Shown one piece after another: positions 1 through 39,693 of a stretch of 39,693 nucleotides of DNA. Both the position numbers and the translations under genes were made by a program. Under the pieces are notes generated by a model. The model had not been told where the DNA came from, did not search any database, and was given only the letters and a program-made list of their open reading frames with translations. Every line of letters begins with the position of its first letter. Positions within the stretch are counted from its first letter, which is position 1. Source of the stretch: Escherichia phage ST31; the sequence record NC_047829.1. One strand, given 5' to 3'.

Positions 1-513
1 GGCAAAGGCGCGTTCACTAAGTGCTACCTGAAGGATTGCGGGAAGCGTGTAATTCTGGTCTCTTCTGACCCGATAAAGGAGTGTATGGCGTGGGGATGGT
101 TTCCTGAGTCTCCACTGTTCCCTGAAGTCAAGATGATTGAGGTAGGCACGTATGAGATGGACTACATGCCACCAACGCGAGGTCTCAAGGCGCATTTAGA
201 TGACGACCAGTGGCAACTCTATCAGGTGCTGCGCGACTGCTTCTCACGGTCTCCGGTATTCTCTCGACCTGCTGACCTGTATCACAAGTGGTACGAGATA
301 TTCCAAGCTGCACACGACAGGTCTGAGACTGAGACTGTGCGGGAAGGTCTGATGGCTGTGCTGATGGCGCTGGACGCTTGCGCTAACTTCGGGTCAGACA
401 TTCAGTTTGAGATAAGCCCACGCAATGTACGGGCCGTGAACGGCAAGTTGATACTGGTGGACTGCTTCTTCCTTGTGTCCAAGCTGCAAGAGGTGAGGTC
501 ATCAAGATGGTAA
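1..513 (+). CDS. Atypical protein kinase-like early protein (T7 gp0.7 position); 5' end lies at 39672-39693 across the window junction
   Basis: Frame 1 is open from base 1; joined to 39672-39693 through the 10-nt end overlap it reads MKLIGKGAFTKCYL...RVILVSS, a glycine-rich loop resembling T7 gp0.7 LGNGHFSAAY...RVIKVG as I recall it; about 174 aa in total. Confidence 0.6.
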   Translation, partial: GKGAFTKCYLKDCGKRVILVSSDPIKECMAWGWFPESPLFPEVKMIEVGTYEMDYMPPTRGLKAHLDDDQWQLYQVLRDCFSRSPVFSRPADLYHKWYEIFQAAHDRSETETVREGLMAVLMALDACANFGSDIQFEISPRNVRAVNGKLILVDCFFLVSKLQEVRSSRW

Positions 514-656
514 CTTATGGTCTCTGCCAGCACCACGTCACCAACGCCCGGCTTATGGTAAAGACCGGGCAGTTAAACCACGATGCGACCATGCGCCACT
601 TGAAAGCGGTCTATGAGGGCCGCAAGCGTATACACGACAGTTTGCACGCTGAGTGA
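507..656 (+). CDS. Small early hypothetical protein (49 aa)
   Basis: ATG 507 preceded by GAGGTGAGG; overlaps kinase stop; below ORF-track size cutoff; translated by eye. Confidence 0.3.
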   Translation: MVTYGLCQHHVTNARLMVKTGQLNHDATMRHLKAVYEGRKRIHDSLHAE

Positions 657-722
657 TAAACGAGAGGTCATCGACTGATAGATGGCCTCAAAGATTACCA
701 CTTACATTGATAGGAGTTAACT

Positions 723-890
723 ATGAAACAACTTACAGGCATAGCACTTTACGCAACCTTTACGGCTTGGCTGACTGCGGTATTCACTGATGGGAACGCA
801 TTACAACTAGGCTGGATGGTAGCGGATATTATCTTCGCTCCGGTAGGGGTCGTGCGGGGCATCTTGATATGGTTTGGATTGGTGGGATAA
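723..890 (+). CDS. Small hydrophobic early protein (55 aa)
   Basis: TAGGAG 6 nt upstream of ATG 723; hydrophobic product (MKQLTGIALYATFTAWLTAVF...ILIWFGLVG); conflicts with minus-strand ORF 749-931, which I reject. Confidence 0.4.
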   Translation: MKQLTGIALYATFTAWLTAVFTDGNALQLGWMVADIIFAPVGVVRGILIWFGLVG

Positions 891-893
891 ACT

Positions 894-983
894 ATGAGTA
901 TTGGACATTGGGTATGTCTGTCTCCGGTCATCTGGATGATAGGTTATGGGATATACGACTGTATTAAACGGAAATCGCTATGA
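894..983 (+). CDS. Very small hypothetical peptide (29 aa)
   Basis: ATG 894 four nt after previous stop; stop TGA overlaps next ATG (ATGA at 980-983), suggesting translational coupling. Confidence 0.2.
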   Translation: MSIGHWVCLSPVIWMIGYGIYDCIKRKSL

Positions 984-1177
984 TATCTGCACTATTGATA
1001 GCCATAGGCTATGGACTTATCATCTACGTACTGGTGAGTGACATCAACAAGGCGCGTAAAGTCTATAAATTCAACTATGTACGTCTGGGTCGCTGGACTG
1101 TACGTCAACCTAACGGACGATTCATGCGCAACTTAGCGAACGTCTGGGATATAGCAACTCTTGGGAGCAAACTGTAA
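980..1177 (+). CDS. Small early hypothetical protein (65 aa) with N-terminal hydrophobic segment
   Basis: ORF track; start overlaps upstream stop, stop overlaps downstream start. Confidence 0.45.
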   Translation: MISALLIAIGYGLIIYVLVSDINKARKVYKFNYVRLGRWTVRQPNGRFMRNLANVWDIATLGSKL

Positions 1178-1437
1178 TGAAAACCGTATACACTCACAAA
1201 TCATCTAGCCGTAGCCGCATGGAGCAAGCCAATCGTGATATGTTCTTACAGCGCCGCATGATAGCTGAGGGCCATAAGTCCGAGCTGATGTGTCTGGTGT
1301 ATGGGGGACGACCAATCACCGACGATGGTAGACTTCTGGTCTCAGGCTGGAAGGCGATAGACCAACGGTCAACCATCAAGCACACGACTCATGGTGACTT
1401 CAGTCATCTCCACGCTAACCCATTGATATGCAAGTAA
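1177..1437 (+). CDS. Early hypothetical protein (86 aa)
   Basis: ORF track; GGGAG upstream; start ATG overlaps previous TAA; not present in T7 at this position. Confidence 0.5.
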   Translation: MKTVYTHKSSSRSRMEQANRDMFLQRRMIAEGHKSELMCLVYGGRPITDDGRLLVSGWKAIDQRSTIKHTTHGDFSHLHANPLICK

Positions 1438-1442
1438 TTCTG

Positions 1443-1465
1443 ACTTAACTATCACTATAGGACTC
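1443..1465 (+). promoter_or_regulatory. Phage RNA polymerase promoter, immediately upstream of the RNA polymerase gene
   Basis: TAACTATCACTATAGGA, one of 11 copies of the CTATCACTATAGG motif; analogous to T7 CGACTCACTATAGGGAGA. Confidence 0.7.
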
Positions 1466-38450: not shown

Positions 38451-38635
38451 TCTCACAGTTCAAGAACCTCAAGTCTCCCCCATAGGCCCTCTTTCAGTCC
38501 AGACCAAAGGCCCTACCCAGTCTATCATAAGGTTGGACCGAGGGTCAAGACTTCAGGTCAACGATAGGTTGAGGCTATGGCTTAGGGAAGGACGATAGGT
38601 AGGGACTATGGGTCTGTCTCTGAGTCTCTATCTGT
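38451..38635 (+). repeat. Probable direct terminal repeat (single collapsed copy) containing the physical genome end
   Basis: Begins TCTCACAGT...CCCCCATAGG and ends GTCTGTCTCTGAGTCTCTATCTGT, paralleling T7 TR start (TCTCACAGTGTACGG...) and end (GTGTCTCTCTGTGTCCCTATCTGT) as recalled; boundaries approximate. Confidence 0.4.
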
Positions 38636-39671: not shown

Positions 39672-39693
39672 ATGAAACTGATAGGCAAAGGCG
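39672..39693 (+). CDS. 5' end of kinase-like gene, continuing at base 11 of the window
   Basis: ATG 39672 after AAGGA; MKLIGKG...; last 10 nt of the window (GGCAAAGGCG) are identical to the first 10 nt. Confidence 0.5.

Follow-up and report, generated by a model that had tools for sequence, protein, structure and literature searches.

A predicted gp0.4-family protein and four further small genes in the class I early region of Escherichia phage ST31

Escherichia phage ST31 (NC_047829.1) carries five small open reading frames (ORF1 to ORF5) between a gene for a protein of 174 amino acids (aa), here called UP, and gene 1, which encodes the phage RNA polymerase. They were studied in a window that comprises the whole stretch of 39,693 nucleotides (nt); all coordinates refer to it (Table 1). 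The five ORFs are coding and subject to purifying selection, the 29-aa ORF3 included. It is probable that they form an ordinary class I early region, in which ORF1 would be a diverged gp0.4 that stops host cell division, and ORFs 2 to 5 conserved accessory early proteins. This assignment is based on the family membership of ORF1 and ORF4, on a conserved hairpin between ORF1 and ORF2 and on the mosaic structure of the block among related phages.

ORF1 and its relationship to T7 gp0.4

The similarity between ORF1 and T7 gp0.4 is visible at several levels. BLASTP aligns the two proteins with 39% identity over 41 aa, and each of them matches the PHROG family of the other. When the profiles of 39 ORF1 relatives and 35 gp0.4 relatives were compared with hhalign, a probability of 94% and an E-value of 1e-7 were obtained. 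A look-up revealed that the exact ORF1 protein carries PF26807 (Phage_T7_GP04), and in precomputed assignments this family is present in 88 of 88 relatives of ORF1 and in 43 of 43 relatives of T7 gp0.4. The local Pfam scan was empty for ORF1 because the scanned copy does not contain the PF26807 model. In the related locus L042, whose polymerase is 79% identical, a T7-type gp0.4 that bridges the two groups occupies the ORF1 slot and begins with MVYGL, as does ORF1 itself. The AlphaFold2 model of ORF1 displays two helices (residues 8-20 and 25-47; predicted local distance difference test score, pLDDT, 90), and this predicted hairpin agrees with published work in which Gp0.4 consists of two antiparallel helices (PMC13423816). 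In Foldseek, the model matches small proteins of other T7-group phages; a PDB sequence search with ORF1 yielded no match below E 0.6. The gene is located as that of gp0.4, directly downstream of the gene 0.3 slot and upstream of an R0.5 site. Judged by profile, predicted hairpin and gene position, ORF1 is a member of the Phage_T7_GP04 family. It is of similar size as T7 gp0.4 (49 versus 51 aa), and both genes show a stop/start overlap and are followed by R0.5. The two proteins differ in that overall identity amounts to about 38%, and in that T7 gp0.4 is acidic whereas ORF1 is basic and rich in His.

For T7 gp0.4, six substitutions that abolish FtsZ inhibition have been reported (at V15, V22, W28, M32, L35 and Y39), as well as six other residues that are needed only for CapRel(Ebc) sensing (A12, T14, L16, S19, R23 and K36) (PMC13423816). 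In the profile alignment, ORF1 retains five of the six residues on which FtsZ inhibition depends: V11, V18, M29, L32 and Y36, corresponding to T7 V15, V22, M32, L35 and Y39. By contrast, identity is found at one of the six residues of the CapRel face, and the other five are changed. Compared to all other positions, identity is enriched at the FtsZ residues (one-sided Fisher p 0.023), with His25 at the place of W28. From these data we infer that the two-helix hairpin of ORF1 most likely binds monomeric FtsZ at its polymerisation surface. ORF1 would in this manner stop host division early in infection, like T7 gp0.4, and the face of T7 gp0.4 that is read by CapRel(Ebc) has been replaced.

Upon infection with phage K1F, a multi-ring filament phenotype has been observed as with T7, and Z-ring formation is blocked. 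K1F was said to 'lack the 0.4 genes', the responsible factor was reported to be unknown, and a novel inhibitor was concluded (PMC9372555). As K1F gp0.35 is 80% identical to ORF1, the most economical reading is that gp0.35/ORF1 would be the division-blocking factor of K1F.

Five coding genes and an R0.5-like element

The ORF scan found all five ORFs on the plus strand, at the same coordinates as in a preliminary description of this DNA. Wherever present, each ORF is intact from start to stop (18 related loci; 8-19 distinct relatives per ORF). To calculate dN/dS, the ratio of nonsynonymous to synonymous substitution, pairwise Nei-Gojobori values were pooled, and the same columns read in two shifted frames served as control. 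In frame, the values lie between 0.180 and 0.312 (ORF1 0.275, ORF2 0.247, ORF3 0.180, ORF4 0.312, ORF5 0.270), compared to 0.71-2.28 in the shifted frames, and variable sites cluster at third codon positions. The preliminary description had named a lack of synonymous-biased substitution as the sign that would speak against coding; the bias is present in all five ORFs, and these are genuine protein-coding genes of the class I early region. It is very improbable that some of them, above all ORF3, are chance reading frames. ORF3 has no PHROG family, is absent from K1F and was left unannotated in several records, but 12 relatives have an intact copy, the ORF occurs in 63 phage records and its stop overlaps the start of ORF4. 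Furthermore, its dN/dS rises from 0.18 in frame to about 1.2 in the shifted frames, and third codon positions account for 25 of its 44 variable sites.

The arrangement of the ORFs is less uniform than the five tightly coupled genes described before. The overlaps noted earlier are present, ATGA at ORF3/ORF4 and TAATG at ORF4/ORF5, and ORF2 and ORF3 are 3 nt apart. ORF1 is coupled to UP, whose stop codon (511-513) falls within ATGGTAA, so that both genes overlap. ORF1 is separated by a 66-nt spacer from ORF2, and this pair is not coupled. Instead of a single coupled operon, two translational and predicted processing units with an RNase III-type site in between were found. Purine-rich ribosome-binding sequences precede ORF1, ORF2 and ORF5 and a weaker one ORF3, whereas ORF4 has nearly none and depends on the ATGA overlap. 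As to the hydrophobic nature ascribed to several of the products, it applies to three: ORF2 has a grand average of hydropathy (GRAVY) of +1.17, ORF3 contains a single hydrophobic stretch, and the N-terminal segment of ORF4 reaches +2.43 on the Kyte-Doolittle scale. ORF1 and ORF5 are basic and soluble.

The 66-nt spacer can be aligned both to the spacer between T7 0.4 and 0.5 and to the annotated RNase III site R0.5 of T3. A core, AGGTC...TGGCCT...GATTA, is common to the window, T7 and T3. The spacer folds into a 9-bp hairpin above a lower stem. Among 14 distinct sequences, 95.2% of the cells are standard pairs compared to 30-57% when the partners are slid, and three pairs are altered on both sides, i.e. 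in a compensatory manner. Since its sequence is homologous and compensatory changes preserve the two-stem hairpin, the spacer can be classified as an R0.5 element. It corresponds to R0.5 of T7 and T3 in place (downstream of a gp0.4-type gene), core and two-stem architecture, but differs in the loop and the stem ends, and its cleavage by RNase III is predicted by homology. The following scenario can be envisaged: The host RNA polymerase would transcribe the class I region rightward from the left genome end, and RNase III would probably cut the early transcript at the R0.5-like hairpin. This would yield two segments, one with the gene in the 0.3 slot and ORF1, the other one with ORFs 2 to 5, and within each segment reading would proceed via closely spaced or overlapping starts.

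In relatives, the R0.5-like element is the constant left border of whichever cassette follows. In some of them, two R0.5-like copies are found around a 115-aa ORF (L009 1589-1661 and 2012-2087; L014; L017). This suggests that the element doubles as a recombination joint besides its putative role as a processing site.

ORF4 and T3 gp0.6 are connected by BLASTP (E 6e-8), by hhalign (probability 96%) and by their common membership in phrog_2385. Both proteins comprise 65 aa, carry an N-terminal hydrophobic segment and contain the motif RxTVRxxNGRF; their identity is 37%, and T3 gp0.6 is unrelated to T7 gp0.6. In ORF4, the single N-terminal hydrophobic segment is followed by a basic tail. ORF4 is, as judged from these similarities, a homologue of T3 gp0.6 over the full length, the N-terminal transmembrane segment included. 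ORF2 and ORF3 would be small inner-membrane proteins, and for ORF2, ORF3 and ORF4 membrane insertion is to be expected from their hydropathy. By position, ORF2 is the analogue of T7 gp0.5, which is likewise small, very hydrophobic and encoded first after R0.5. There is no detectable sequence similarity between the two (hhalign probability 0.4%, different PHROG families), and ORF2 as a relative of T7 gp0.5 was rejected for this low hhalign value. Similarly, the proposal that ORF3 duplicates the ORF4 N-terminus, with which it has an IGYG motif in common, found no support (hhalign probability 7%).

No related locus lacks ORF5. When 1.84 billion representatives were searched exhaustively with its profile, only 12 clusters were returned, and all of them belong to this phage group save for a repetitive 1594-aa protein that was matched only over profile positions 7-39. 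In the model, a three-helix unit (residues 11-66) is followed by a low-confidence tail, which carries the invariant C-terminal motif T-x-x-G-D-F-x-H-L; the C-terminal peptide of ORF5 reads TTHGDFSHLHANPLICK. The product would be basic and soluble, with this invariant peptide motif at its C-terminus. ORF5 homologues of 83, 86, 108 and about 130 aa exist that differ only in N-terminal extensions (window compared with L006, L009, L013 and L017), and their C-terminal 55 residues are almost invariant. The model has no PDB match in Foldseek, and the PDB sequence search revealed nothing below E 0.6. ORF5 is not related to T7 gp0.7 or T3 gp0.65, so that a role of ORF5 as a replacement of the gp0.7 shut-off domain is unsupported. 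ORF5 as a zinc-binding protein was rejected, too, since His and Cys are not invariant in distant members.

Mosaic structure and alternative explanations

Among the relatives, identity amounts to about 98% for the neighbouring RNA polymerase compared to 60-98% for the small proteins. Gene content between ORF1 and ORF5 varies: ORF2 and/or ORF3 are present or absent among relatives, and in some of them additional ORFs of 41, 66 and 115 aa are found in the block. Some relatives carry an insert between the homologues of ORF4 and ORF5, namely an endonuclease VII/HNH-type gene (phrog_2633; L015 2010-2432, L016 2079-2501); this insert is probably a homing endonuclease. Phage ZG49 (L012 1520-1911 and 2292-2435) contains an in-frame fusion of ORF3 and ORF4, composed of the 29-aa ORF and the ORF4 C-terminus, and the ORF1 N-terminus and the C-terminus of UP are partially duplicated in it. 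Such rearrangements resemble scars left by recombination in the early region.

The preliminary description had regarded the block as a variable cassette for host-takeover and anti-defence functions. A variable, mosaic region is confirmed by the relatives, and ORF1 belongs to a host-takeover family (gp0.4), whereas for anti-defence no ORF has a match. That the block is an anti-defence cassette, with at least one of ORFs 2 to 5 inhibiting bacterial immunity, therefore appears unlikely. The interval is mosaic and evolves fast beside a 98%-identical RNA polymerase gene, the adjoining slot holds Ocr in relatives and the ORFs encode small uncharacterised early proteins, as one would expect for such a cassette. 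However, no similarity to known defence or anti-defence proteins was detected, and nearly all members of the group possess ORF4 and ORF5, a distribution that is not accessory. No ORF matches the local Pfam copy (without PF26807), NCBIfam or PADLOC, and searches of PHROG, Pfam, NCBIfam and PADLOC revealed no anti-defence function for any ORF. In the literature, nothing was found on the function of gp0.35 to gp0.38 or on the Pfam accession, and a preprint on phage accessory genes is silent on these phages.

Several points weigh against an ordinary early region with a division-blocking ORF1. T7 W28 is replaced by His25, and this His is nearly invariant across the ORF1 subfamily. Since W28L or W28A alone abolishes FtsZ binding by T7 gp0.4 (PMC13423816), FtsZ binding by ORF1 may differ or be lost; the Trp-to-His exchange is the main reason for caution on ORF1 as an FtsZ inhibitor. 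In addition, the hydrophobic residues that are kept could partly be due to hairpin packing instead of an FtsZ interface. The z-score of the spacer hairpin (-2.4) is modest, and RNase III cleavage is deduced only from homology to annotated sites. Searches of family libraries assigned no function to ORF2, ORF3, ORF4 or ORF5, nor did PDB and Foldseek searches to ORF5. One could imagine that ORF1 is a retargeted gp0.4-family protein which, owing to the exchange of W28, does not bind FtsZ any longer and acts on another host target. The division block in K1F would then originate from another early product, e.g. a membrane protein acting like lambda Kil. In line with this, ORF1 is only about 38% identical to T7 gp0.4, and three uncharacterised membrane peptides adjoin it. 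Yet, five of the six residues needed for function are retained, and ORF1 has its fold, its gene position and its Pfam family in common with T7 gp0.4; we consider retargeting rather improbable. A bolder idea, which is less probable than not, is that ORF1 is an immune-evasion gp0.4, which would still sequester FtsZ and whose solvent face, the one read by CapRel(Ebc), has been rewritten. Separately, the ORF4-ORF5 pair upstream of gene 1 would perhaps be an undescribed host-takeover module.

Genomic context and significance

The first 1.6 kb of the window match 206 phage records at 80-99% identity, the majority of them Kayfunavirus (K1F-like, Autographiviridae, Studiervirinae). ST31 is a Kayfunavirus and as such belongs to the K1F-like phages within the T7 group; in the window, its genome is circularly permuted. 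The final 10 nt of the window are a copy of its first 10 nt, and the left genome end aligns at about position 38451. The last 22 bases, ATGAAACTGATAGGCAAAGGCG, are the 5' start of the upstream gene, which resumes at base 1; because of the circular permutation, the start of UP was placed at the end of the window.

Table 1. Features of the ST31 early region and its surroundings (window coordinates).
Feature	Position	Strand	Remarks
First codons of upstream gene UP (MKLIGKG)	39672..39693	+	Read from window end
Upstream gene UP, 174 aa, phrog_11084	39672-39693 joined to 1-513	+	Gene 0.3 (Ocr) slot
ORF1 (A49), 49 aa, = K1F gp0.35	507..656	+	PF26807 Phage_T7_GP04; ribosome-binding site GAGGTGAGG upstream
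R0.5-like element, predicted RNase III processing	653..701	+	Lower stem 653-658/696-701, upper stem 664-672/681-689
ORF2 (B55), 55 aa, = K1F gp0.36, phrog_7319	723..890	+	Ribosome-binding site AGGAG
ORF3 (C29), 29 aa, hydrophobic, basic tail KRKSL	894..983	+	Not in K1F
ORF4 (D65), 65 aa, = K1F gp0.37 ('0.6'), phrog_2385	980..1177	+	T3 gp0.6 homologue
ORF5 (E86), 86 aa, = K1F gp0.38, phrog_7066	1177..1437	+	Basic three-helix protein (predicted)
Putative phage RNA polymerase promoter core AACTATCACTATAGG	1447..1461	+	10 nt past ORF5 stop, 75 nt before gene 1
Gene 1, T7-type single-subunit RNA polymerase, 893 aa	1536..4217	+	ORF scan and similarity

K1F annotates orthologues of four of the five genes between gene 0.3 (Ocr) and gene 1, namely gp0.35, gp0.36, gp0.37 (a second K1F record names it '0.6') and gp0.38. 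Their identity to ORF1, ORF2, ORF4 and ORF5 amounts to 80, 61, 91 and 84%, respectively, and their order is kept. K1F differs in that it has no 29-aa ORF3 and carries Ocr in place of the 174-aa UP. These four genes are already annotated in K1F, and the region is the ordinary early region of K1F-like phages.

UP sits in the slot that in K1F and many relatives holds Ocr-like genes (gene 0.3). As UP fills this slot, the block is the counterpart of the T7 0.4-0.5-0.6-0.7 interval; its earlier comparison with the T7 stretch between 0.7 and gene 1 was misplaced. The phage does not encode the 0.7 kinase. UP itself had been called kinase-like, a designation that lacks statistical support: hhalign against the gp0.7 kinase yielded a probability of 0.8% with an alignment limited to a 13-residue G-loop-like motif, and UP has no match in Pfam, NCBIfam or PDB sequence searches (PDB: none below E 0.6). 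The designation goes back to two short motifs, KLIGKGAFTKCY (G-loop-like) and FEISPRNVRAVNGKLILVDCFF (catalytic-loop-like), which resemble gp0.7, again without statistical support. Aligned by eye, UP has Leu opposite the VAIK Lys and Glu/Ser opposite the catalytic Asp/His. With a likeness at the motif level only and catalytic residues that are not matched, UP as a T7 gp0.7-type kinase was rejected. UP may have a minimal kinase or pseudokinase fold; alternatively, it may be a different early effector that exchanges with Ocr. In more distant relatives, gp0.7 homologues of 242-244 aa are found that comprise only the kinase domain and lack the C-terminal host shut-off domain (L041 1918-2652, L042 1832-2560, L016 920-1654, L017 1439-2173). 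They are located directly upstream of ORF4-ORF5.

Downstream of the block, AACTATCACTATAGG evidently represents the promoter consensus of the phage polymerase. Eight exact copies and three further ones with 1-2 mismatches are present in the window, all on the plus strand, compared to 1.1 expected by chance. The position of this sequence after the ORF5 stop is kept in all K1F-like loci. Gene 1 therefore appears to have a phage promoter of its own, in which it differs from the polymerase genes of T7 and T3. Scans for sigma-70 promoters and terminators yielded no more hits than chance. A search for an R1-like hairpin upstream of gene 1 found a fold no better than in shuffled sequences (z = -0.4), and an Rfam search of positions 400-1700 gave no match.

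Apart from ORF1, the block is as expected for the T7 group, and four conserved proteins (ORFs 2 to 5) can be added to the candidates for screening. What is new is that K1F-like phages do carry a relative of gene 0.4, in contradiction to the published statement (PMC9372555). With gp0.35 as a diverged gp0.4, the question of the K1F inhibitor becomes directly testable. An FtsZ face that is kept and a CapRel face that is changed would constitute a natural experiment, in which an effector keeps its target and alters what immunity sees. If the evasion idea were true, K1F-like phages would block division without triggering a CapRel(Ebc)-type defence, and the division block observed in K1F would be explained.

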